In this document: one piece after another, positions 42,010-64,000 of the stretch
Layout: every line of letters starts with the position of its first letter
Numbering within the stretch: the stretch's first letter is position 1
NCBI GenBank assembly: GCA_002897715.1
Contig: BDUA01000039.1
Location: 244-64,243, forward strand
Reading direction: 5' to 3'
DNA length: 64,000 nt
Origin: a bacterium BMS3Abin01
GTDB lineage: Bacteria; Actinomycetota; Thermoleophilia; BMS3ABIN01
Notes under the pieces: generated by a model
What the model was told of the DNA's origin: nothing
Seen by the model: the letters and a program-made list of their open reading frames with translations, nothing else
Database searches by the model: none
Translations under genes and position numbers: made by a program

Positions 42010-42085
<76 letters not shown>

Positions 42086-42100
42086 GATACCTGCCTGTCC

Positions 42101-43420
42101 CTACTTAACTTTTCCCGTGAACATGGGGATGCCCACACGCTTGCGGGCGGTCTCTCCCCTGAACAGATCCCCCTTGCGCGCCGGCGCGTCGCCGCGCTCT
42201 CCCAGGTGCTGCCCGAACCTGTGGGCGGCGAAACTGGAGCCCAGGAAAAGCGTATGCTTGCCGTACTTGAGACGCACCCCATCCACCGCCGCGTAGACCC
42301 GCCCCACCTTCTCTATCTGCGCCGTCATCCCGAACAGGTCCGGCTGGAGGATGACATCATCCTCCAGCTTGAACAGCACCACCCCCGTGGAGCGGTAGAG
42401 CTTCCCCGGGTTGAACAGCCGCTCGAAGGCCGGCTCCAGGGCGGCCAGCACCTGGTGGGGAAAGGCGGTGGGACGCGAGAAGCGGACCTCGGCGCCCGCA
42501 CCGCGAAAGTCCCGGGTCTTCAGGAAACATACGGCCCGGCCCGCCGCCAGATGATAGCGCCGCGCCTTCATGGTGGCGTTCTCCACGTTCTTGGAAAGCT
42601 GGGCGAAGACGAACTCCCGGTCTCCCGACGGCGGCGTGAAGGTCTTCATCTTCCGGATGGAGCCGTAGGTCTCTTTTTCCTCCGTCTCCAGGCCGATGAC
42701 AGCCTCACCGTTGAGCTCCCGCCAGGTTTCCTGAAAGGGTTTGCTGAACCGTTCCTTCACCCACACCTCGTCCTTGAGGGCGAACTGCAGCGCCGTGCTT
42801 ACCCCCTGCTTGCCCAGGAAGGCGGTGGTCTGGGGTCCTATCCCCCATACCCTGTCCACCGGCAACCGCTCCAGGTAGCGGGCGATGTCCCGGCCGGGGA
42901 CCGCCGTCAGCCCCGACGGCTTCTTCCACTTGGAGGCTATCTTGGCGATGGTCTTGTTGGGGGCCAGCCCCACGGAGAAGGTGAAGCCGAAACAGCGTTC
43001 CAACTCCTCCTTCATGGCCCGGGCGATACCCGGATAGCCCATACGCAACGGCCGGCGCATGCCGGTGATGTCGGCGAAACACTCGTCGATGCCGTATTCC
43101 TCCACCTCCGGCGTGTACTTGCGCACGATGCTGAAAAAACGCCGGGAGAGCAGGCTGTAGGTCTCGTAGTCCGAGGGCAGGAACACCGCGTCGGGACACA
43201 GGCGCCTCACCTCGGAGAGGCGCATGGCACGCTCCACGCCGCGGGCCTTGGCCTCATAGCTCATGGACGCCACGATATTGCGCTCCTTGCCGGTAATGAC
43301 CGGCCGCCCCTTGAGTTCCGGGTTGCGCGACTGCTCCACGGCGGCGAAAAAGGCGTCAGCGTCGATATGGATGATGGCTCGCGGATAGGAGCCGATGGCG
43401 ATTACCCTGTCGTTTCCCAC
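42101..43420 (-). CDS. Y-family (DinB/UmuC-like) translesion DNA polymerase, second gene of the lexA operon
   Basis: 'AIIHIDADAFFAAVE' and 'YGIDECFADITG' catalytic D/D/E motifs. Extended C-terminus (~440 aa total). Start tentatively at GTG 43418-43420, because the track ATG at 43591 lies 135 nt inside lexA. Confidence 0.7.
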   Translation of the reverse strand: MGNDRVIAIGSYPRAIIHIDADAFFAAVEQSRNPELKGRPVITGKERNIVASMSYEAKARGVERAMRLSEVRRLCPDAVFLPSDYETYSLLSRRFFSIVRKYTPEVEEYGIDECFADITGMRRPLRMGYPGIARAMKEELERCFGFTFSVGLAPNKTIAKIASKWKKPSGLTAVPGRDIARYLERLPVDRVWGIGPQTTAFLGKQGVSTALQFALKDEVWVKERFSKPFQETWRELNGEAVIGLETEEKETYGSIRKMKTFTPPSGDREFVFAQLSKNVENATMKARRYHLAAGRAVCFLKTRDFRGAGAEVRFSRPTAFPHQVLAALEPAFERLFNPGKLYRSTGVVLFKLEDDVILQPDLFGMTAQIEKVGRVYAAVDGVRLKYGKHTLFLGSSFAAHRFGQHLGERGDAPARKGDLFRGETARKRVGIPMFTGKVK

Positions 43421-43455
43421 GATAAACCGGTTTCGTCGGGACCACCGGAGCGGTC

Positions 43456-44025
43456 TCAGTATTTCCGGATCACCGCCTTCACTACCGCCGCCGCCCTGAG
43501 CTCCTTCTCCGGGTAGATCGGCTTGTACCTGCGATTGGCGGCCTCCAGATACACCTTGCCGCCCCGCTGGCGAAAATACTTCATGGTCCACTCGCCGTCC
43601 ACCTCGGCGATGATGATGTCACCGTCCTTCTCCCGCACGCCCCGCTCCACCAGGACCATGTCCCCCGGCATGATGCCGGCATCGATCATGGAATCTCCCT
43701 GCACCTTGAGCATGAAGGTGGCCCCCGGTCGTTCCACCAGGAACTCGTCCAGGGTCATGGTGTCCAGCAGCTCCTCCTCCGCCGGTGAAGGCCAGCCGGC
43801 GCTCACCGCTCCCAGCAGGGTGACACTGTGGAAGCGCCTGCCCGGCAACAGCCGGCCGGTCTCGTCCCGCTCCACCAGCCCCAGCTCCACCAGGCGGTTC
43901 ACCAGCTTGTGAGTACTGCCCTTGGAACTGAGCCCCGCCGCCCTGGCTATCTCGCTATGGCTGGGCATGCGCCGGTGGGCACGGTAGAAATCCCTTATCT
44001 TGTCGAAATGTCTGGGCGTCTCCAT
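43456..44025 (-). CDS. lexA: LexA transcriptional repressor (SOS regulator)
   Basis: wHTH N-terminus 'MPSHSEIARAAGLSSKGSTHKLVNRLVELGL'. S24 peptidase 'VQGDSMIDAGIMPGDMVLVER' Ser/Lys dyad region. Start set at 'METPRHFDKIRDF' (ATG 44023-44025) rather than the track TTG at 44064. Confidence 0.85.
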   Translation of the reverse strand: METPRHFDKIRDFYRAHRRMPSHSEIARAAGLSSKGSTHKLVNRLVELGLVERDETGRLLPGRRFHSVTLLGAVSAGWPSPAEEELLDTMTLDEFLVERPGATFMLKVQGDSMIDAGIMPGDMVLVERGVREKDGDIIIAEVDGEWTMKYFRQRGGKVYLEAANRRYKPIYPEKELRAAAVVKAVIRKY

Positions 44026-44066
44026 GACAGGAACAGTATAGGCGTACGTTCGTACGCCTGTCAAGA
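44026..44066 (-). promoter_or_regulatory. lexA promoter with SOS-box-like 8-2-8 palindrome in the spacer
   Basis: Minus strand reads TTGACA-GGCGTACGAACGTACGCC-TATACT, with the ATG 9 nt downstream. Perfect inverted repeat GGCGTACG-AA-CGTACGCC between a consensus -35 and a near-consensus -10. Confidence 0.65.
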
Positions 44067-44106: not shown

Positions 44107-45681
44107 TCAACCGCCGGGGTATGGAGCCGGGATCAGGTATGTCTCACCGCTGCCGGCCATGGCGGTGGCGAAGAGCGTGGAGCGGAACGAATCTACTCCC
44201 TGGGGAATCCTGTATTTGAGGGTGAAGGAGCTTCCCTGGCTGCCGGGGTCAACGATCCCCGTCGCCAGCGGCAGTGGCGTCGTCATAGCCGCGCCACCGC
44301 TCTCTATGGAGCCGACGATAGTGAGCTCCTGGATGAAAACTTCCTGGCTGGTGATCCTGTAATCAACCGACAACTCCCCCGACTGGTAATCCGCATAGGA
44401 TGACCAGTATATATTTGTTGCGGCGATACCAAAGTTATTGTCTATCACTACTCCGATCTCCGCAGTACCGGCATTGCCGGCGGCATCGTATGCAACCGCC
44501 CTCAGGACGTGGGGGCCGCTGGCAAAACCCCCGGTCGCCAGGTCAAAGTCATAAGGCGCGGCGGTTCTGACGCCCGCCAGGTTATCGCCGACATAGAGCT
44601 CCACCCTGGAGACCGCATCATTGTCCGAGGCGGCTGTGACAACGGTCACCGTATCCGACAGGCTGGCTCCCGGGAGCGGCGAGTCGATGGAAACGGTCGG
44701 CGCGGTGACATCCGGAGCCTTGGCGGCGTTACGGAAGGCCTCGAGGCTCCCCGGAGAGCTATTGACTCGCCAGTCAGTTTCCTTGTTGGTATCGAACCAG
44801 ACCAGGCTCTCGATCCTGGGGAACCTGACCGGAAGGCTGGCAAACGTGTCGGTTATCCAGCCGGGTTTGCTGCCACCCAGCTCGGCTGACGCGGTCTCGC
44901 ACACCATGACCGGTTTGCCGCTACGCGCGGTGAACTCATCGTAGCTGGGTCCGAAGATGGCAGCGAAATCCCGCCATACAGAGGTCCATTCCGGCGTGTT
45001 TTGCGTCGTGCCCCAGTTGTATCCGTCCAGGCCCAGATAATCGATATAGGCATCACCGGGATAATATGTGCTGAAGGTACCGGCGGCGCCCGCAGCGTCG
45101 CTATTGGCATTCGGTGACCAGACGAACTCCACGTTCGCGGCGCCCTCCTGGACGAAGATGTCGTGAATATGACGCCAGGCCGGGATGAAGTCCGAAGGCT
45201 GGTTGCCGTTGGCCGTGCCCGACCAGACGGTCCAGTCACCATTCATCTCGGGCATCGGCCGGAAACGGACCGGATAGCCGAAGTCTCTCAGTTGACGCGC
45301 CCAACGGTGGATGTCGCCGTCGAAGTTGCCGCTGGTTATATTCCGCAGCTGATAGTCGGGCTGGTTGATCAGGTCGGCGGCGCCGGGGTCCCATGGCTCC
45401 CAGGTCACCATTATGATCTTTCCCTGCTGGGAGATAGAACGTAAAGCGCCCGCGTTGAAGTCGTCACCAATAGCGTAGAAAGAATGAAAGATGTCGACGG
45501 CGCGACCGGTATCGTTCTCGAAGCTCCCCAGGTCTCCCGGATTCTCAAGGAATACCCCCAGCTTGAAGCCCGGAGCGGTAGCAGCATCAGCGCTGTCGTT
45601 ACTTACCATTAACACGCCCGCGAGAAGCAGCGGCAGAAAAGCGATTGTGATTAAAGATCGGAGCGAACTCATTGAAGTCAA
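44107..45681 (-). CDS. Secreted glycoside hydrolase family 26 (beta-mannanase-like) with C-terminal Ig-like domains
   Basis: Signal peptide. 'VRFRPMPEMNGDW' (GH26 acid/base region) and 'VMVCETAS' (nucleophile region). C-terminal beta-rich repeats. Confidence 0.7.
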   Translation of the reverse strand: MTSMSSLRSLITIAFLPLLLAGVLMVSNDSADAATAPGFKLGVFLENPGDLGSFENDTGRAVDIFHSFYAIGDDFNAGALRSISQQGKIIMVTWEPWDPGAADLINQPDYQLRNITSGNFDGDIHRWARQLRDFGYPVRFRPMPEMNGDWTVWSGTANGNQPSDFIPAWRHIHDIFVQEGAANVEFVWSPNANSDAAGAAGTFSTYYPGDAYIDYLGLDGYNWGTTQNTPEWTSVWRDFAAIFGPSYDEFTARSGKPVMVCETASAELGGSKPGWITDTFASLPVRFPRIESLVWFDTNKETDWRVNSSPGSLEAFRNAAKAPDVTAPTVSIDSPLPGASLSDTVTVVTAASDNDAVSRVELYVGDNLAGVRTAAPYDFDLATGGFASGPHVLRAVAYDAAGNAGTAEIGVVIDNNFGIAATNIYWSSYADYQSGELSVDYRITSQEVFIQELTIVGSIESGGAAMTTPLPLATGIVDPGSQGSSFTLKYRIPQGVDSFRSTLFATAMAGSGETYLIPAPYPGG

Positions 45682-46135
45682 GTCTCCTGGTCGGCAGCCA
45701 AGCTGTCATAGCCCCGGTGGACCTTAGACCTTTGGCTTTGCGCCGCCCCGTTTCCGGGGTTTTGCCTTTTTCACAGGGGCCCGGCTTCTCCCAATACCCA
45801 AACCCGTGTCTGTAAGCTATATCGGAAATGATCTTGAGAATATTAACCGCACAGACATCGACGGTTTGAGCGGTTATAGCCCCGTTTTTCGGAAACGGCG
45901 GCACGGTGGAAGCGGCATCCGGCCGGATAGGCGGCAATCAGGTGAGTTCCGTATTGAAATAATCGTACATTTATGAGACTATTACTTTGTTTTGGGGCAC
46001 TGTTGCACTTATTGAAGGCGGGAAAAGCGGGGGCATGGCTGGCCTGAGCGGAGCCTGGGCCGTAAGATGTTGGCCGGGATTAAGCAGGTTTATAGTCCCG
46101 CCGGAAATGTAGATCAGCTATAGAGAATTAAAAAA

Positions 46136-47266
46136 ATGTCTGATTGCCCCAGCAACAACAGAGATATTGCAGGCATGAATATCGTGGTTTTAGTGCCTGC
46201 CCATAACGAGGAAGAATCAGTCGAGGCCACCGTCTCGTCTTTATTGTCGCAAAGCCGGTTACCGGACCTGGTCGTCGTGATTTGCGATAACTGCACGGAC
46301 GATACGGAAGACGTGGCCAGCATCTTCACCTATCATCCGAATTTCCGTTTACTCCGAACCGTCGACAACACCCACCGGAAATCGGGCGCGCTCAACCTGG
46401 CCTACTCGAAATTCTGCGACGATGCCGATCTCATCATCACGGTCGATGCCGACACCATCCTCTCACCGACAGCAATCGAGAACTGGGAGCGGGAGTTTGA
46501 AGCCGATCCTGATCTGGGCGGTTCCGTGGCCAGATTCACCATACGCGGCACAGACATCCTCAGCAGGCTGCAGCGAAACGAGTATGCTCGCGGCATCGAC
46601 ATGGGATTGCGCCGGGGATGGACCTCCGTGCTGGGCGGCGCCGCCAGCGCCCTCAGAAAATCCGTTATGGATCGGGTGGCGGCGCTGCAGGACGGGCGTT
46701 CCGGCCCCTGGACCTACGCCTCGCTGGTGGAAGACTTCGAGCTGACTTACAAAATACACAGCTTCGGATGCCGCTGCTGCATCTCCCCCACCGTGCGTGC
46801 TTACACCGATTCGATGAAAACCATCCGGTCGCTGTGGGGCCAGCGCATGAAATGGCAGGTCGGCACCGTATCGGAGCTGTTCAAGGTAGGCATCAACAAG
46901 GTATCCCTGCTTCAATGGTACTCCCAGATCCAGGGAATGCTCGTCGTCGTTATCAGGATCCTTTGGTTGTATCTGATGGCTACCGCCATCGCTGCCGGAC
47001 ATCTCACTTTCAATCTGTGGTGGATCTGGATTCTCATACCGGTGATCATCACCGCCAATGAATTCAAGCACGCCCTTCGGATCCCCCATCGAGACCGGTG
47101 GGACCTGGTAATCGTTTTAACGGTCTTACCGGTCGAGCTCTTCTCGTGGCTACGCATGGGGTGGTTCGTTGCCGGCTGGTGGAAAGCCGTGATGGCCAAC
47201 ATCACCGGCCGTCAGAAAGACTGGTGGGCAATGCAATATCAAGCCGAGAGAGGGGGTGATAGATAA
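46136..47266 (+). CDS. GT2 glycosyltransferase with C-terminal TM helices, processive synthase-like (NodC/PgaC/cellulose-synthase-like)
   Basis: 'VLVPAHNEE', 'DNCTDDT' and 'TVDADT' (DxD). 'GQRMKWQ' resembles the Q(Q/R)xRW motif. Three to four C-terminal TM helices. Confidence 0.7.
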   Translation: MSDCPSNNRDIAGMNIVVLVPAHNEEESVEATVSSLLSQSRLPDLVVVICDNCTDDTEDVASIFTYHPNFRLLRTVDNTHRKSGALNLAYSKFCDDADLIITVDADTILSPTAIENWEREFEADPDLGGSVARFTIRGTDILSRLQRNEYARGIDMGLRRGWTSVLGGAASALRKSVMDRVAALQDGRSGPWTYASLVEDFELTYKIHSFGCRCCISPTVRAYTDSMKTIRSLWGQRMKWQVGTVSELFKVGINKVSLLQWYSQIQGMLVVVIRILWLYLMATAIAAGHLTFNLWWIWILIPVIITANEFKHALRIPHRDRWDLVIVLTVLPVELFSWLRMGWFVAGWWKAVMANITGRQKDWWAMQYQAERGGDR

Positions 47267-54825: not shown

Positions 54826-55593
54826 TCAACGTCGCTCTGGACGGGTGTGGATCCAGACCAGGGCAACAGCCGCCGCTATAGCCGTCGCCAGCGCCAGGAG
54901 CCGCTGCTGTGTCTGGCCGTCGCGCTGGAAACGCACGAACTCCACCAGGAACCGTTCCGTCCCCGCCATTACCAGATAAGCACAGAAAAGCTCCCAGTCC
55001 CGCTTTAGCCGGGGCCAGAGGAAGAGCAGTACGAAGAAGATGAGAATGGCGGCGCCCACCTCGTACAGCTGGGTCGGCTGCACCGTGATCCCCGGCGGCG
55101 TCGGTGGTGAGCCCCGGGGGAAACCCATCGCCCACGGTAGCGTCGAGGTTATGCCGTAATCGTCACCATTTAGAAAACAGCCCATGCGGCCGAAAGCGTA
55201 GCCCAGCGCTATGGCCGGCGCCGCCGCGTCCAGCACCTTGCCCCAGGGCAGCTTCAGGAAGGTCATGACCATGAGCGCCGTCACCAGGCCGCCCACCATG
55301 CCGCCGTACCATACCAGGCCGGCCCCGCTGAAGGCACTCCTGAGCGGGGTGTCTCCCAGCTCGCTCAGATTCAGCAACAGGTAGTGTATCTTGCTGCCCA
55401 GCACCCCTCCTACAGCTGTGGCGATAACCAGCCAGAAGAGGTTCTCCGTATCCAGCCCCTTGCGCCTGAAGCCGTAATAGGCGGCGATCCCGGCGGCCAG
55501 GAACCCGAGCGCCATCATCAGCCCGAAGGTATGAATGGTGAAAGGTCCTATGGAAAGAAGTTCTGGATACATCGTTATCAATGACTTTATCAT
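54826..55593 (-). CDS. lgt: Prolipoprotein diacylglyceryl transferase
   Basis: 'IGPFTIHTFGLMMALGFL', 'PTQLYE' and 'GDDYG' Lgt signatures. True start possibly at the 'MYPELL' Met (55572). Confidence 0.8.
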   Translation of the reverse strand: MIKSLITMYPELLSIGPFTIHTFGLMMALGFLAAGIAAYYGFRRKGLDTENLFWLVIATAVGGVLGSKIHYLLLNLSELGDTPLRSAFSGAGLVWYGGMVGGLVTALMVMTFLKLPWGKVLDAAAPAIALGYAFGRMGCFLNGDDYGITSTLPWAMGFPRGSPPTPPGITVQPTQLYEVGAAILIFFVLLFLWPRLKRDWELFCAYLVMAGTERFLVEFVRFQRDGQTQQRLLALATAIAAAVALVWIHTRPERR

Positions 55594-55669
55594 ATTACTC
55601 TAAAGGAACTAATAAGGCCCTAAAGGTTTTATTAGGTTCTGCCGATAGCGGGCTTGAAGAAAGTCGTAC

Positions 55670-55760
55670 CACACTCGACAAAGGCAAACCCGTCGTGAGG
55701 CGGGGACGCAAAGCCAGGGGTCTCCGGTTGGGAGACAGCCCAGCCGCCGAAGCTTTTTGA
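55670..55760 (+). ncRNA. Candidate cyclic-di-GMP-I (GEMM) riboswitch in the leader of the surface-protein cluster
   Basis: 'AAAGGCAAACC', then the GNRA hairpin CGUC-GUGA-GGCG, then 'GGGACGCAAAGCC' + AGGGG. Then hairpin GUCUCC-GGUUG-GGAGAC and 'CAGCCCAGCCGCC'. Matches the Vc2-type GEMM core '...GGCAAACC...GAAA...GGGACGCAAAGCC...GG' by eye. Confidence 0.55.
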
Positions 55761-55938
55761 ACGAAGCTCGCTGGACTGGGCTTTTCAGTATTGAGGCCCT
55801 GGTGGAGTGATACGCAAGTTCAATTGCTTTGGCATCGCCAGGCGATTGAACTTTTTTATTGCCGGCACCAGTGGGACAGGGGATGAATCTTGGTAATTCT
55901 TGGTTGTTAAAGCGCGAGACAGAAAGGGGTGCACATAG

Positions 55939-56538
55939 GTGAAACGTTCAACGAAAATTGCTCTTCTGGCAGCAGGCACTACTCTAATCCTGGTCATGGC
56001 CCTTACTTCAGCGGTATACGGGGCCTCGTCGGCATCAGACCCCGTAGCGGTTACCCTGACGGTGGATGACTATATCTCCCTCAGCAACCCGGGCGATGTA
56101 GCACTGGCGAACATCGCCGGTACCGGCGGCTCGGCGGAAAACAGCGCCACCTGGACCGTAGCCACCAATAACGACGCCGGCTACAAGCTGGAGGTCTCCG
56201 CCTCCGGGACGCCGGCCATGACCAAGGGCGGCGACTCCTTCGCCGACCTGGTCGACGGCGGCACTCCCATTCCCTGGTCGGTGGCGTCAGCCGACTCCGC
56301 ATTTGGTTTCAGCGCCGAGGGCACGGCCACGTCCTCCTCGCTGTGGGGAACCCCCAGCACCGGCTCCGGCAAGTACCGCGGCTTCAGCGGCGGAACCGCC
56401 ATCGAGGTCGCCAACGACAGCAATGAGACCAGCGGTGAGGACACCACCATCTACTTCAAGGCCGAAGTAGGCGCCAGCCACCTGCAGGCCAGCGGTTCCT
56501 ACGCCGCCAACCTGACAGTCACAGCCACTACGCTGTAA
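55939..56538 (+). CDS. Secreted 199-aa beta-rich protein, possible divergent WxL-like cell-surface domain
   Basis: GTG start with AAAGGGGTG Shine-Dalgarno. Signal peptide. 'SATWTVATN', 'IPWSVAS', and C-terminal 'SYAANLTVTATTL' reminiscent of WxL motifs (YSATLTWTL). Confidence 0.4.
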   Translation: MKRSTKIALLAAGTTLILVMALTSAVYGASSASDPVAVTLTVDDYISLSNPGDVALANIAGTGGSAENSATWTVATNNDAGYKLEVSASGTPAMTKGGDSFADLVDGGTPIPWSVASADSAFGFSAEGTATSSSLWGTPSTGSGKYRGFSGGTAIEVANDSNETSGEDTTIYFKAEVGASHLQASGSYAANLTVTATTL

Positions 56539-56674
56539 TTGCATATATAACTTAATAGCAACAGATCAACGCAACATGTTTCAGACAGAAGCTCCCCTTC
56601 CGGGAGCTTCTGTCTTTGGCAAAGTCTGTCTTGCAGGAAAGCCGTTTGATAAAGCGAAGTCTACACCCCAGTAA

Positions 56675-58069
56675 GTGGCAATAAAAAAACAACACGTGAA
56701 TTCGCAGACAACAAACCCGGTTAACGCTGCTTGCTGCCACGAGAGGGCATCGGGCGCGGGAAGGTTATGGCGAGGCCTGTTCTCCGGAGCCATAGCCTTG
56801 ATTGTGTTGCTGTTTATTACCGTCACCATACCCGCCGGCGCCCGGGCCTACACCGTGGAAAAACACGACGACCAGGTGACCGGCCAGATTGTCATCTCCC
56901 CCACCAAGATCGAACTCAACCTGGATCCGGGCGATACGGCCACCGCCGAGGTGGTATTGGTGAACCGCACCGGCGAGCCCGTCACTTTCCAGTTCTCCGC
57001 TGAGGACTTCGAGGGCTCCCATGATGCCTCACAGGCTACGGTCTTTCTGGGCGATGAGTTGAGCCCCAGAGGCGCCAGCCGGTGGCTCCACCCTGAAGTC
57101 AGCAGTATCGTGCTCGACAACGGCGAGACGCTCACCATGGCTGTCGAGGTATCCGTACCTCCCGGCGCCGAGCCCGGAGGCCACTATGCCGCCCTGTTCG
57201 CCTCGCGGACCACTGATCAATATGATAACGGCACCGCCATCAAGGTAACCGAGCGGCTGGGTACATTGTTCCTGATCAAGGTTACCGGCGCCATAGACGA
57301 AGCGGGAACATTGGATACGCCGGAGGTCAAGGGCTTCCTGGAGTACGGGCCGGTTTACATCGGCCTGGTGTTCAACAACCAAGGCAACATCCATCTTAAG
57401 CCGTCGGGGAAGGTGACCGTCCGCAACCTGCTGGGTCAGACAGTCGCAGAGATCCCCGTGGAAGAATGGATAGTCCTGCCTGACTCGTCGCGCCGCACCC
57501 TTGTAAAATGGGACCGTCACTACCTGCTGGGGCGCTACACGGCCACAGCCGAGATCACCTACGGCGACAGCGGCACCATCCTCATGTCCCAGAGTTCCTT
57601 CTGGGTGATCCCCTGGAAGATAATCCTCACACTTGTTCTCGGCCTGCTGCTTCTGGGCTTCATTATCAACAAACTGTACTGGCGGTCGGCGAAGCGTGAA
57701 CAGCCCGGCGACGGCACCGCGGATGAGCCGCCCCGGGTTGGCGCCCCGGCGGCACAACCGGACGAGCAGGCCCAGCCGCCCCATCAGGAGACCATGCCCC
57801 TGGAGCCCGTGGTACCCGATAGCTATATCGCCCTCAACGAGCTGTTCCCTTCCATGGGCGATGACCAGGTCATCAATCTGGATGACGCCGAGACCCACAG
57901 GCTGGTGCGGGAGATGATCAACAACAAACTGGATCTGGCGCGATCCTACCAGAAGCAGGGCATGACCGAAGCGGCGCGCTACGAACTGTATGAGGCTCGG
58001 GCCGCAGCCCAACGTATCGGGCTGCTGTCGGAGATCGGCATCATCGATGATCTGCTGATCTGGCTCTAG
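56675..58069 (+). CDS. Membrane-anchored cell-surface protein (signal peptide, ~280-aa beta domain, C-proximal TM after conserved 'WVIPWK', Pro-rich cytoplasmic tail), DUF916/DUF3324-like architecture
   Basis: Architecture matches the paralogue at 61843..62700: 'ISPTKIELNLDPGDTATAEVVLVNRTGEPV' vs 'VSPTVISPTIAAGDETRETVVLHNLSGRAL'. Conserved Trp-rich segment before the TM. Confidence 0.45.
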   Translation: MAIKKQHVNSQTTNPVNAACCHERASGAGRLWRGLFSGAIALIVLLFITVTIPAGARAYTVEKHDDQVTGQIVISPTKIELNLDPGDTATAEVVLVNRTGEPVTFQFSAEDFEGSHDASQATVFLGDELSPRGASRWLHPEVSSIVLDNGETLTMAVEVSVPPGAEPGGHYAALFASRTTDQYDNGTAIKVTERLGTLFLIKVTGAIDEAGTLDTPEVKGFLEYGPVYIGLVFNNQGNIHLKPSGKVTVRNLLGQTVAEIPVEEWIVLPDSSRRTLVKWDRHYLLGRYTATAEITYGDSGTILMSQSSFWVIPWKIILTLVLGLLLLGFIINKLYWRSAKREQPGDGTADEPPRVGAPAAQPDEQAQPPHQETMPLEPVVPDSYIALNELFPSMGDDQVINLDDAETHRLVREMINNKLDLARSYQKQGMTEAARYELYEARAAAQRIGLLSEIGIIDDLLIWL

Positions 58070-58440
58070 GGCCGGCGGCGCTTCGCTGATTGACATCCTG
58101 TAGCTAAAATGATAGCGTCATTGTTGCCGGTTCAAGCGTTTTACGGAGGCAGTGGCGATCATCCCCGGGCGTTGGTATCTCTTTCCTATGGTAGCTGTGA
58201 CGATGTTGGCAGCTTCTGCGGTCCTGCTGTTTTTCACCGTGGCCCCACCTTCCCTGGCCGCGTCTCGCTCCCGGCCCGCCATGGAGGCGGGACATACCCG
58301 GGTGACCGTCCGGGTGACCAGTTCCCTGGCTGTATCCACTGATGGCAGTGCCGAAGCCTCGGGGCCGGTGATCCGTATCAGGGGCCCTCAACCCGCAACC
58401 GTCTCCTTCCTGGTGATGGACGGCTGAGCGTTCCGGTCTT

Positions 58441-61400
58441 TTATTCCGGATAGGCGGTATAGACCACGTTAGCGGTGTAACTGCCGGAGACAGACGGCGC
58501 CGGCACGACCAGACGGTAGTCGAACAGAAACGAGGCGCCGGCGGTCGCGGGCAGTCCGTCGGCTACGATCGTGCTCGCCGGGGTCTTCACAAACGGCTGA
58601 TAGGCCGATGGCGCCTGAGCGTTCTGCTTCCAGCCCAGGTTCACGATATCGATGAAATTGGCCGGATTGGACTGCAACAGATCCCCGTCAGACGCGACTT
58701 TCAGCCCCCAGGTGACATTGGACTTGACCGTGAGCCTGGCGGCATAAGCCGGAGACGAAGCATCCCCTACGTAATAGGTCGTACCCTCACTGACATTGCC
58801 GAAACCCACCGAGCTGGTACCCGGGGTGCCGTCACGGTTCCAGGTATCGTCGATGGTCACGGTTATGGAGCCCGGCGCCGGCACGTACTCGATCACCAGC
58901 TTGGGCCTGAGGGACGGATCGGCGCTGAAGTCGGATGAATAGAACAGTTTAACGTCAGACTCCGCCGGGTTCTCCACATCCTTCTTGATGATCATCCCCC
59001 TGTTGGTTACCGTGCCGTTCACCCATGACTGGGTCAACGCCGCAAGGTCCCAATCGACCCAGACCGCGGTCGCCGCCGGTGCCACGGCGCTGGCGCTGAC
59101 GGTGGCGTTGAAGTCCCCGCCGGGGCTGGCCCAGCTGCTGCTGCCGTCGTAGGTATTCCAGGTGGCCCCGTCACCGCTCTGGGTCCAGTAGCCGGTGCCC
59201 TCCGTCCAGTCGCGGGTAAGATAGTGCACGTCCATGGTCGGGGTGCTGGTATCCCCCTGACCCGCCTGGTAGAGCGACAGCGTTGCCGAGTTGATCGTCG
59301 ACCCGGTGGGTATGGCTGACAGGTCAAAACGAAGGTTGCAGCGTATGTTCCCCCAGAAGGAAGTGGGATAATCCCCCGCCAGCAGCCATGTCGTCGCGCC
59401 CGAGTTCAGGTCCGGCCGGTAGCTCTGCAGGGTATCGTCCACACCGTCGGCCGGCCCGGGCTGGATCACCATCTGGATGGCGGCCTGGAAGACATAGTCA
59501 CCGGAAACGGTCTCGTTGCCGGATGGGTCGATGGTTCTGACCCGGTAATGGTAGACGGTGCCCGCGGTCAGACCGGACAGGGACACCACGTGCTGGTTGC
59601 TGATGGCCGTGTCCAGAGTAGTGGTCGAACCATAACTGGTGGTGGTGCCGTATTCCACCTGGGATGTTCCCCCTTCGCAACTGGACCATTTTATGTCGGC
59701 TGTGGTGGTAGTGATGTTCTCAGCCCGGACCTCGCCCAGGTTGGGGGGCGTGACATCGTCGCCCAGCCATTCGATGGTCAGCTTGGGTCTTAACGTACGG
59801 TCCACCACGTATTCGGAGGAGTAGAATTCCTTGGCGTCACTGCCGGTGGGGCTCTCCGGATCCTGTTTGATGAGGACACCGAAATTGTCAACAGTGCCGT
59901 CTATCCAGTCCCGGGTGAGCGCAGCCAGATCCCAGTCCACCCAGACACCGGTGACCCCGGGCGCCACGGCGCTGGCGCCGGCGGTGGCGTTGAAATCCCC
60001 GCCGGGGCTGGTCCAGCTGTTGCTGCCGTCGTAGGTGTCCCAGGTGGCCCCGTCGCCGGTTACCGATCCGCTGCCGGTCCCTTCACTCCAGTCGCCGGTC
60101 AGATAGTGGGCATCCAGGTCAGGGGTACTGCTGTCCCCCTGACCCATCTGGTACAGTGACATGGTAGCGCTGTTGATGGTGGCGCCGGCCGGTATGAAAC
60201 CCAGGTCGAAATCCAGCAGGGACCGCATGGTCCCCCAGTCGGCGCCCGGCAGGTCGCCGACCTGGAGGCTGGTCTCGGCGCCCCGGTTCCATGCAGGCCG
60301 TGAGCTGCCGATATACGTGTCCCTGGCCATGGCGGGAAAGGGCTGCAGAACGGTGATGTTGGCGGTCCTGAAGCTGTTCTCCGCCGAGTAGGAGATGTTA
60401 CCGGCCCGGTCCGCCGAACGCACACGGTAATAATAGGTAGTCGATTCCTGCAAGCCGGAGATGGGTTGGCTGTGGCCGGTCAGCATGGTGCTGTCCAGCG
60501 GCGTCGACCAGGTATATACGCCGGAACTGGTGCCATATTCCACCTGGGAGTCGGCGGCCTCGTCCGTGGTCCAGGTGATGATGACGTTGCTGCTGGCTAT
60601 ATTGCCCGCCTGCACTGCGGAGATCACCGGAAAGGTATTGTCAACATTAACCTGGATGGAAGACACCGCCGTGTTGTAAGCACGGTCCGTCGCCGTCAGG
60701 CGCAGGGTATAGAGGCCGTCGCTGACGGCGGCCGTGTCCCAGGTGCCCAGCAGGCCCGCCAGCACCGGGCTGGCGCCGATGGTAATCTGCGTCCACGAGA
60801 CCGGCGCCGCACCGGCGCCGTACTCCAGCAGGTAGTTATAGAAGCTGTAAGCGTCGTCTACCGTGCCCCGTACCGGCAGCGAACCAGAGACCCAGTCGCC
60901 GTCTGACGGGTCGGAGATGATGGCGGTGGGCGCGGAGGCGTCTATCTGGAGCATGCGTGACTGCCTCTGGATATCGTCGCCGGTGGCAGACAGCAGCCGC
61001 GTTCTCAGCCAGTACCAGTCACCGTCGGTAAGACCACCGGCCGGCAGGGTAAGCTGGAAATCATACCAGTTGCCGTTCCGGGTCACGGCAGGCGCCGCCC
61101 ACGACTTCACGCTGCTGTTGGTAAATCTCCGCAGCCGCTGCTGGCCGCTGCCGGTTAATATCTGGTCGTAGTCCGCCCCCGTGCCCCAGGCGCGGATGTA
61201 TACGGTGGCGCCGGGGGCAAAGGTGTAGGATTCATCTGTTCGCGCCGCATCGCTGTAAATTCTGGCGTACTGGTTTAGGCCGTACAGCGATATCTGCTGC
61301 TCGAACTGAACACGGGGGCCGCTGCCGCCGTTTCTCACCCTTCCCCATATTTTCATATAGTCTGACTGGCCGGCGGGGATGGTCACCTGGGACGTATAGA

Positions 61401-61788
61401 TATATGGCGCGGTGAAAGTGACCTGGGTCCAGTTGGCAACCCGGATATTGGTGTTCTGGTAGCGGCGTAACCGCATCCTGTTTCTCTTGCCGGAAACAGC
61501 GCCGACGCGGTCGGTCGTCACCCGCACATAGACCGTATCGCCCGGGTTGAACTCGGTGGTGTGAACCATACAGGCGGCATCGGCGCAGATCTCGATAATA
61601 TCGCCGTTGGCTTCGGTGTAGGGAGCATCCGGCCCCAGGACCGCCTGGGAGCGGTAGGCCGTCAGGAAAAAAACGGCCGCAGCCGCGGCCAGCACCAGCA
61701 GGACGCCGGCAAACGCCCTCCCTGGCTCCACCTGGTTATGATAATCATGCCGGCGGTCTTGCGCACCGGTTTCGGGCCCGTCTGCCAA
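58441..61788 (-). CDS. Giant (1115 aa) secreted/anchored protein with fibronectin type III domains and two tandem ~215-aa repeats
   Basis: N-terminal signal anchor. FN3-like 'VEYGTSSGVYTW...YYYRVRSADRAGN' and 'VEYGTTTSYGSTT...YHYRVRTIDPSGN'. Two repeats about 70% identical, 'SLLDFDLGFIPAGATINSATMSLYQMGQGDSSTPDLDAHYLTGDWSEGTG...RPKLTIEW' and 'RFDLSAIPTGSTINSATLSLYQAGQGDTSTPTMDVHYLTRDWTEGTG...RPKLVIEY'. Confidence 0.7.
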   Translation of the reverse strand: MADGPETGAQDRRHDYHNQVEPGRAFAGVLLVLAAAAAVFFLTAYRSQAVLGPDAPYTEANGDIIEICADAACMVHTTEFNPGDTVYVRVTTDRVGAVSGKRNRMRLRRYQNTNIRVANWTQVTFTAPYIYTSQVTIPAGQSDYMKIWGRVRNGGSGPRVQFEQQISLYGLNQYARIYSDAARTDESYTFAPGATVYIRAWGTGADYDQILTGSGQQRLRRFTNSSVKSWAAPAVTRNGNWYDFQLTLPAGGLTDGDWYWLRTRLLSATGDDIQRQSRMLQIDASAPTAIISDPSDGDWVSGSLPVRGTVDDAYSFYNYLLEYGAGAAPVSWTQITIGASPVLAGLLGTWDTAAVSDGLYTLRLTATDRAYNTAVSSIQVNVDNTFPVISAVQAGNIASSNVIITWTTDEAADSQVEYGTSSGVYTWSTPLDSTMLTGHSQPISGLQESTTYYYRVRSADRAGNISYSAENSFRTANITVLQPFPAMARDTYIGSSRPAWNRGAETSLQVGDLPGADWGTMRSLLDFDLGFIPAGATINSATMSLYQMGQGDSSTPDLDAHYLTGDWSEGTGSGSVTGDGATWDTYDGSNSWTSPGGDFNATAGASAVAPGVTGVWVDWDLAALTRDWIDGTVDNFGVLIKQDPESPTGSDAKEFYSSEYVVDRTLRPKLTIEWLGDDVTPPNLGEVRAENITTTTADIKWSSCEGGTSQVEYGTTTSYGSTTTLDTAISNQHVVSLSGLTAGTVYHYRVRTIDPSGNETVSGDYVFQAAIQMVIQPGPADGVDDTLQSYRPDLNSGATTWLLAGDYPTSFWGNIRCNLRFDLSAIPTGSTINSATLSLYQAGQGDTSTPTMDVHYLTRDWTEGTGYWTQSGDGATWNTYDGSSSWASPGGDFNATVSASAVAPAATAVWVDWDLAALTQSWVNGTVTNRGMIIKKDVENPAESDVKLFYSSDFSADPSLRPKLVIEYVPAPGSITVTIDDTWNRDGTPGTSSVGFGNVSEGTTYYVGDASSPAYAARLTVKSNVTWGLKVASDGDLLQSNPANFIDIVNLGWKQNAQAPSAYQPFVKTPASTIVADGLPATAGASFLFDYRLVVPAPSVSGSYTANVVYTAYPE

Positions 61789-62743: not shown

Positions 62744-64000
62744 TCACTTTTTCCTCGAAAGGAGCAGAGGCTTGAGCGCCTTGCCGGTGTATGATTTTCG
62801 CACCCGGATGATCTCTTCCGGCGTTCCCGCCGCCACCACATCACCACCGGCGTCGCCACCCTCCGGACCCAGGTCGATGATGAAGTCGGCGCATTTGATC
62901 ACATCGAGGTTGTGCTCGATCACCACCACCGTGTTACCGGCGTCCACCAGGCGCTGCAGAACCTCCAGCAGCTTCTCGATATCGGCGAAGTGCAGCCCCG
63001 TGGTCGGTTCATCAAGGATATACAGGGTACGGCCGGTGGCTATCTTGTTGAGCTCGGATGATAGCTTGATTCGCTGAGCCTCGCCGCCGGAGAGGGTGGT
63101 GGCCGGCTGACCCAGGCGGATATAGCCTAGCCCCACATCCACCATCGTCTGCAGGCGCCTGACTATCACGGGGATGGCGGCGAAGAATTCCAGCGCCTGG
63201 GCTACGCTCATGTCCAGCACATCGGCGATGTTCTTCCCCTTGAACCTCACTTCCAGGGTCTCACGGTCGTAGCGTCTGCCCCTGCAGACCTCACAAGGCA
63301 CATAGATGTCGGGCAGGAAGTGCATCTCGATCTTGATGGTGCCGTCGCCGCGGCAGGCCTCGCAGCGCCCTCCCTTAACGTTGAAACTGAACCTTCCCGG
63401 TTTGTAGCCGCGCACCTTGGCCTCCGGCGTCACGGCGTACAGCCGGCGTATATGGTCGAAAACACCGGTATAGGTGGCAGGGTTGGAACGGGGCGTACGA
63501 CCGATGGGAGACTGGTCGATGTTGATTACCTTGTCCAGCTGTTCCTTGCCGTCGATGCCGTCGTGTTTGCCGGGAGCCACCTGGGAACGGTATACATCCT
63601 GTGCCAGGGAACGGTACAGTACATCGTTTACCAGGGTGGATTTTCCCGAACCGGATACGCCGGTGACACAGACGAAGCGACCCAGGGGGATCACCACATC
63701 GATGGACTTGAGGTTGTGTTCACTGGCGCCCCTGATGGTCACCTGTCCGTCGCCGGCGGGACGGCGCTCCGGCACCTCGATGGCGCGCCTGCCGGTGAGA
63801 TAGGCGGCGGTGAGACTCTGGCGACACTTAAGGATGCTGGCCATGGTCCCCTGGGCCACCAGCTCTCCCCCGCGCTCCCCGGCTCCCGGCCCCATGTCGA
63901 CGACATGGTCGGCGGCGCGCATGGTCTCCTCGTCGTGCTCTACCACCAGCACCGTATTGCCCAGGTCGCGCAGGCGGTGCAGGGTATCGATGAGCTTCCG
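62744..64000 (-). CDS. uvrA: Excinuclease ABC subunit A (C-terminal part; gene continues beyond the window end)
   Basis: '[33 protein letters not shown]', '[13 protein letters not shown]' (second Walker A), '[15 protein letters not shown]' (ABC signature), zinc-finger CxxC pairs. Open frame runs to position 64000. Confidence 0.9.

Follow-up and report, generated by a model that had tools for sequence, protein, structure and literature searches.

We propose that the operon at 55939-58427 of bacterium BMS3Abin01, an uncultured Actinomycetota-like organism, is controlled through its 5' leader by a type 2 c-di-GMP-I riboswitch that acts as an ON switch. Taken as a whole, we consider this model likely, and under it the operon is probably switched on at high c-di-GMP. 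The observations on which the model builds, made in the 64-kb stretch of DNA analyzed here (the window) and at related loci, are an aptamer match, the conservation of the aptamer, its association with the genes, and the conservation of both alternative hairpins that can form downstream of or across it.

A cmscan search of the entire window against the 4227 families of Rfam 15 returned three matches above gathering thresholds. The match at 55674-55752 on the plus strand is to RF03167 (c-di-GMP-I-GGC, clan CL00126), with a score of 73.9 bits against a gathering score (GA) of 59 and an E-value of 1.2e-15, and it is complete, spanning model positions 1-80 of 80. A full-length match above the GA of a clan member places the element in CL00126 and lies far beyond chance, so that 55674-55752 is almost certainly an aptamer of the c-di-GMP-I clan. 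Restricting the search to 55600-55940 gave the same RF03167 match; one more CL00126 family, most probably RF01051 (GA 35), scores above its own gathering score at 55674-55752, and two others of the clan match at E <= 10 within 55600-55940. The c-di-GMP-II family (RF01786), which the earlier note had proposed to check over the same interval, gave no match there even at E <= 10, and we do not assign the element to that class.

The earlier note had placed a GEMM-I (c-di-GMP-I) riboswitch in the leader of the GTG start at 55939 and had named its hallmark elements in order. That assignment holds, given the RF03167 match and the upstream element kept in relatives, and all of the elements are present at 55683-55745 on the plus strand. 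Read from the sequence, these are the GGCAAACC motif (55683-55690), a first hairpin (55689-55704) closed by a GUGA loop, which is a GNRA loop, the GGGACGCAAAGCC motif (55703-55715), a second hairpin (55712-55745) and the CAGCC motif (55741-55745). The aptamer thus consists of a short outer P1, a P1a hairpin with the GUGA loop, an AAA linker and a receptor-less P2 hairpin that carries a conserved C.A mismatch and an AG bulge. Among the homologues, GUGA or GCGA loops, the AAA linker and the short receptor-less P2 all recur, as in the GEMM-I architecture, for which an AAA linker and the association of a GYRA loop with an absent receptor have been described (PMC1950547). We accordingly class the element as GEMM-I type 2. 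It lies on the same strand as GTG 55939, 187 nt 5' of it, and this cis-regulatory position, together with an expression platform that overlaps the aptamer, is as expected of a c-di-GMP-I riboswitch.

The element is widely retained 5' of the closer relatives of the first gene of the operon. The gene 1 protein matches a hypothetical protein of 'bacterium BMS3Abin01' at 100% identity, and its homologues occur in metagenome-assembled genomes (MAGs) labelled Thermoleophilia, Gaiellales or Actinomycetes. At nine of nine actinobacterial genome loci with a gene 1 homologue (49-83% identity), an RF03167 match of 64-74 bits, again above the GA of 59, is situated 170-270 nt upstream on the same strand. 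A covariance model purpose-built from the aptamers of these loci recovered the element in 18 loci, metagenome contigs included, which represent 15 distinct sequences and always show the same position and orientation; besides the window, these are 17 loci in Thermoleophilia/Gaiellales-like MAGs with the element 5' of a gene 1 orthologue. The aptamer was not found at loci whose homologue is <= 48% identical, including loci from CPR and Gammaproteobacteria.

Across the 15 distinct sequences the aptamers are 88% identical. Standard pairs occupy 90% of pair cells, compared with 34-45% when the partners are slid, so the P1/P2 pairing on which the earlier note had staked its claim is conserved. No compensatory double change occurs in the aptamer within this clade at 88% identity, and structural support therefore comes from the Rfam model and not from covariation in the clade. 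One subclade (L005, L006, L016, L018 and L019) carries joint changes at alignment columns 20 (U to C), 27 (G to A) and 33 (A to G), which are window positions 55693, 55700 and 55706. RNAalifold takes this triple change for covariation, but it may be a single event or may reflect pairing in the apo state. The alternative register that it offered for the first hairpin involves a change of U-A to C-G at columns 20/33, which we did not adopt since the changes come from a single subclade.

The aptamer sits in a 345-nt intergenic region between GTG 55939 and a divergent lgt gene (54826-55593, minus strand) that encodes a prolipoprotein diacylglyceryl transferase (Pfam LGT, E 6e-50). An ORF of about 250 aa is likewise divergent just 5' of the riboswitch in L001 (2906-3652, minus strand) and L008 (2888-3643, minus strand), and these ORFs are taken to be lgt by their size and position alone. 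About 27 nt 5' of the aptamer, a CCGATA motif (55642-55647, plus strand) falls in invariant or nearly invariant columns of a 10-locus leader alignment; it may belong to a promoter, and the sequence there offers no convincing sigma-70 consensus. The search for promoters yielded a single weak sigma-70-like site (55564-55593, with 9/12 matches where 0.5 such sites are expected by chance), and we assigned no promoter. At the other end of the leader, a Shine-Dalgarno sequence, AAAGGGG (55923-55929, plus strand), precedes GTG 55939 by 9 nt. Just upstream of it, 55879-55922 and the aligned region in L001-L009 hold a conserved GGGAUGA motif and a small hairpin, which in the L004-type loci reads AUCUUCC...GGAAG; this region may fold into another structure or may act as a promoter element or processing site. 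In one related locus (L014, 1-330), a rearrangement has replaced the aptamer and both terminators described below with unrelated sequence. The gene and, 5' of it, the final ~75 nt of the leader are still in place, and the proximal leader may have signals of its own.

Between the aptamer and the gene, the leader contains the parts of an expression platform, and as a whole it folds far better than shuffled controls (z = -4.95). The first part is an alternative hairpin, H (55737-55782), which with the UUUU that follows it forms a candidate terminator, T1 (55737-55786, plus strand), seen in minimum free energy (MFE) folds and conserved among the leaders. The 5' arm of H is made of the 3' strand of P2 (AGCCCAG, 55737-55743) and the 3' strand of P1, and its 3' arm ends in CUGGGCU (55776-55782). 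H forms in the MFE structure of 10 of 10 full leaders, where the 3' strands of P2 and P1 are left unpaired within the aptamer; when it is folded alone, all 16 of the 16 leaders yield it, with energies of -18 to -28 kcal/mol, and they all show the overlap with the P2 3' strand as well. Its interior has diverged between the subgroup of the window and that of the L004-type loci. The U-rich tail after H holds 5-7 U in 8 nt in the L004-type loci and 5 in 8 in the window (UUUUCAGU, a weak tract), and it is weak or absent in L002 and L003. In L017 (570-780), a natural leader variant that has no T2 keeps the aptamer and H/T1 with UUUUUU, so that H/T1 is its sole terminator.

H and the ligand-bound aptamer cannot coexist. 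Where P2 has its invariant C.A mismatch, H has an A-U pair, and the apo RNA would therefore be biased toward H. Folds in which the aptamer is enforced lie 5-13 kcal/mol above the MFE, a cost plausibly within the range of tight ligand binding. [quoted passage not shown] By analogy with these, a hairpin that overlaps P2 and is followed by a U-rich tract would represent the classical GEMM "ligand = ON" terminator design, and we lean modestly toward ON-switching through T1.

The second part of the platform is an intrinsic terminator, T2 (55816-55857, plus strand), with a stem of ~17 bp and a U6 tract, identified by a terminator scan, by folding and with RNAalifold. Of the 16 loci, 15 have T2, with folding energies of -17 to -26 kcal/mol, L017 being the exception, and RNAalifold shows compensatory changes in its stem, for example at columns 172-209, which are CG in 11 sequences and UA in 4. 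That L017, without T2, keeps the aptamer, T1 and the gene indicates that the aptamer with T1 alone is a viable design. Upstream of T2, segment S1 (GCCGAAGCUUUUUGAAC, 55746-55762, plus strand) is complementary to the 5' arm of T2 and is a candidate antiterminator strand. In transcripts that end before the 3' arm of T2, the S1:T2-5' pairing is the MFE structure in 11 of 15 leaders when the aptamer core is enforced and in 13 of 15 when the full aptamer is enforced. In equilibrium folds T2 always forms, even with the aptamer enforced, and the S1:T2 state is less stable by 2.5-19.5 kcal/mol; the values from this calculation for L005, L006, L016, L018 and L019 are invalid, the transcripts of these loci having been truncated. 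Given this preference for T2, we rejected equilibrium antitermination as a thermodynamic model; any antitermination at T2 would be kinetic. Complete S1:T2 pairing would also use C55747, a predicted ligand-contact nucleotide discussed below, and the 3' strand of P1, in conflict with ligand binding.

From these elements we infer the direction of switching, the bypass of T2 and the identity of the ligand, to which we return below. Without ligand, the 3' strands of P2 (AGCCCAG) and P1 would pair downstream to form H, which with the U-rich tract would act as T1, and H would at the same time sequester S1, otherwise able to pair with the 5' arm of T2. Binding of c-di-GMP would lock P1 and P2 and so block T1, and it may kinetically favor the S1:T2-5' pairing. 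With T1 blocked, transcription would proceed into the genes at high c-di-GMP, as expected of an ON switch.

The alternative that survives best concerns what happens at T2, and we consider it unlikely but deserving of real weight. It holds that c-di-GMP is bound with little or no ligand-dependent read-through, T2 being constitutive, or that T2 follows OFF logic, in which P1, once stabilized by the ligand, keeps the S1 strand from acting as an antiterminator. The switch would then chiefly decide between short (T1) and longer (T2) leader transcripts, and some other factor would drive or release the genes. The precedent for this is Bc1 of B. thuringiensis, the only characterized dual-terminator c-di-GMP-I riboswitch, which has two terminators, the first of which unfolds with c-di-GMP while the second remains intact and masks the response (PMC11218506). 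The strength of T2, its conservation in 15 of the 16 loci and its presence in all equilibrium folds point the same way, and so does the overlap of S1 with P1 and the C92 equivalent. Yet the leader of L017, which has the aptamer, T1 and the gene and no T2, suggests that a simple T1 ON switch is viable, and when transcripts end before the 3' arm of T2, 11-13 of 15 leaders already show S1 base-paired with the 5' arm, a pattern typical of kinetic antitermination. The gene kept in L014 without aptamer or T2 implies that expression without the switch is possible; against this, the tightly conserved linkage of aptamer and gene argues for cis regulation of the operon. We therefore continue to prefer an ON switch that works through T1.

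As to the ligand, the contacts made by the c-di-GMP-I riboswitch Vc2 provide the reference: G20 contacts one guanine of c-di-GMP via its Hoogsteen face, C92 forms a Watson-Crick pair with the other guanine, and the backbone of A47 contacts a 2'-OH of the ligand (PMC5888326). All three nucleotides have their equivalents here on the plus strand, namely G55683 for G20 (model position 10), A55710 for A47 (model position 37) and C55747 for C92 (model position 75). G55683 and C55747 are invariant in the 15 distinct sequences. The consensus of RF03167 at model position 37 is G, and the nucleotide is A in 15 of 15. Because the equivalents of G20, A47 and C92 are canonical, c-di-GMP is the predicted ligand, and we hold this to be quite likely. 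From its predicted pocket, which is canonical, we class the RNA as a c-di-GMP-I riboswitch despite its having RF03167 as its best family.

This preference for RF03167 raises the question of whether the RNA could be a functional member of the orphan c-di-GMP-I-GGC class that senses a signaling molecule other than c-di-GMP. RF03167 is the top Rfam family both here and at all 9 related genome loci (64-74 bits), and its model assigns positive scores to the C.A and A.C appositions at the P2 base, which implies a scaffold like that of RF03167 seed members. The cmscan consensus lines read GACGC-G-AAgCc for RF03167 and GACGC-A-AAgCc for RF01051, and they also show that RF03167 has a short P2 without the tetraloop-receptor extension (CUAAgg...cuAuG) of RF01051. 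The short receptor-less P2 and the outer P1 pairs explain why RF03167 outscores RF01051, whose consensus has the receptor extension, and the appositions at the P2 base add to this preference. The GGC variant is said to have been defined by Weinberg and colleagues in 2017, and we take the 'GGC' of the family name to denote the nucleotides at positions 20, 47 and 92, with G47 as the one that defines the variant. At that position the window has A55710, and A, not G, stands there in 15 of 15 distinct sequences, while the G20 and C92 equivalents are canonical. We thus regard a GGC-class sensor as improbable, and c-di-GMP remains the ligand that we predict. Automated annotation would label the element 'c-di-GMP-I-GGC' though the variant-defining nucleotide is absent, which calls for caution in the bookkeeping of variant classes.

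A more elaborate reading, which we think equally improbable, joins the features of the aptamer and of the platform: in evolution the clade would stand between the canonical c-di-GMP-I riboswitches and the GGC variant as an intermediate, and its two terminators would make it a two-checkpoint or band-pass device. The RNA combines the RF03167 scaffold, the C.A mismatch included, with a retained A47; in such a device, the ligand could open T1 while formation of P1 controls the antiterminator for T2. If the clade is such an intermediate, comparison of A55710 with relatives that have G47 would provide a direct handle on the ligand of the GGC class. The weakest candidate is a sensor of 3'3'-cGAMP (GEMM-Ib type) or of another cyclic dinucleotide: GEMM-Ib selectivity reportedly goes with an A at position 20, as Kellenberger and Nelson are said to have described in 2015, and since position 20 is G, not A, in all sequences (G55683 being invariant), we give this hardly any credence even though the retuning of GEMM-I scaffolds to c-AMP-GMP is known (PMC7266159).

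The regulated unit consists of three same-strand genes, at 55939-56538, 56675-58069 and 58152-58427. Gene 1 (55939-56538, plus strand) encodes a secreted 199-aa protein with a signal peptide and a predicted beta-sandwich fold. The choice of GTG 55939 as its start is supported by homologues of 197-202 aa and by the aligned start column, which is ATG or GTG in the homologues. The deposited protein, BMS3Abin01_00842, has 180 aa and begins at an internal Met20, which truncates the signal peptide. Gene 2 (56675-58069, plus strand), identified as an ORF by its translation and syntenic in L001 and L008, encodes a membrane-anchored protein of 464 aa, in which an N-terminal signal/TM segment is followed by a beta-rich ectodomain and, at the C-terminal end, by a TM segment and a cytoplasmic tail; its Pfam matches were all sub-threshold. 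Gene 3 (58152-58427, plus strand) encodes a conserved 91-aa protein with an N-terminal hydrophobic segment, and is 43% identical (E 2e-17) to an L001 ORF in the same position. Sequence searches of the PDB with genes 1 and 2 gave no match.

Two of the functional readings in the earlier note do not stand. Gene 1 had been described as WxL-like; we rejected WxL homology, since none of 30 homologues has a Pfam WxL match at E <= 1 and there is no NCBIfam match. Its predicted fold seems instead to resemble that of donor-strand fibre or pilin subunits, such as TasA-like proteins and archaic chaperone-usher pilins. Likewise, a giant FN3 protein had been placed downstream of the switch. The gene concerned (58441-61788) lies on the minus strand, convergent with the operon, and is therefore not controlled by the leader; its product is a secreted protein of 1115 aa that combines two DNRLRE domains (NCBIfam E 2e-50) with fn3 / purple-acid-phosphatase-N-like domains and with disaggregatase repeats. 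Induction by c-di-GMP of matrix or adhesion (fibre) genes would fit the predicted fold of gene 1 and would be biologically coherent. The earlier note had further remarked that the window holds no GGDEF/EAL gene, and a crude motif scan of the window agrees in finding none that is plausible. A GGEEF motif at 63176 (plus strand) was considered as a diguanylate cyclase and rejected, because the frame that holds it looks non-coding and runs antisense to a real gene.

Elsewhere in the window, a second, canonical c-di-GMP-I riboswitch occurs at 45690-45776 on the minus strand (RF01051, 83.1 bits), with a GAAA loop and a tetraloop receptor; one other family of the clan appears above its own GA at this locus. 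It stands directly 5' of a gene for a secreted GH26 + Big_7 protein (44107-45669, minus strand), with a GT2 glycosyltransferase gene (46136-47266, plus strand) divergent from it. An AGGAG Shine-Dalgarno sequence lies within ~10 nt 3' of its aptamer, which suggests translational control. A tRNA-Lys(CUU) gene (42010-42085, plus strand) adjoins genes at 42101-43591 and 43456-44064 (both minus strand) for a LexA-like repressor (Peptidase_S24 + HTH) and a Y-family polymerase (IMS/IMS_C), which together look like an SOS mutagenesis cassette.

Altogether, the element described here is a new member of an already known riboswitch class and does not overturn current understanding. To our knowledge, c-di-GMP effectors in this Actinomycetota lineage are essentially uncharacterized, and for this uncultured and poorly known group the study contributes a c-di-GMP riboswitch regulon that is well supported. 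The link between c-di-GMP and a conserved operon whose first product appears to resemble a fibre subunit suggests a candidate biofilm-matrix system. Of modest interest are this link, the risk of mislabelling, and the conservation of the dual-terminator platform.

Among known systems, the closest counterpart is the GEMM-I RF01051 type 2 design (Weinberg 2007, PMC1950547, the type of Fig. 2B). Shared with it are the two-hairpin aptamer with the GGCAAACC and GACGCAAAGCC cores and the AAA linker, the GYRA loop without a tetraloop receptor, the G20/A47/C92 nucleotides, the site in the 5'-UTR, and a candidate terminator that takes the 3' side of P2 as its 5' arm (ligand = ON). The RNA of the window differs from that design in its higher RF03167 score, its invariant P2 C.A mismatch, its very short outer P1, its second downstream terminator and its occurrence in an uncultured Actinomycetota lineage. 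RF03167 itself is the best match (73.9 bits). Like it, the RNA has a short P2, outer P1 pairs and non-canonical appositions at the P2 base, but the RNA lacks the defining G at the A47 position, with A in 15 of 15 sequences. Vc2 of Vibrio cholerae has the same ligand-contact nucleotides and junction architecture, but, being a type 1 aptamer, it carries a GAAA tetraloop and its receptor, and its expression platform is different. A further parallel is Bc1 of B. thuringiensis and the B. cereus group (PMC11218506), whose long platform likewise contains two intrinsic terminators: an aptamer-coupled one upstream and a strong one downstream. Beyond the aptamer family, however, the two have no sequence relationship, and the leader of the window is distinguished from Bc1 by a predicted T1 that directly uses the 3' strand of P2 and by a segment complementary to the 5' arm of T2.
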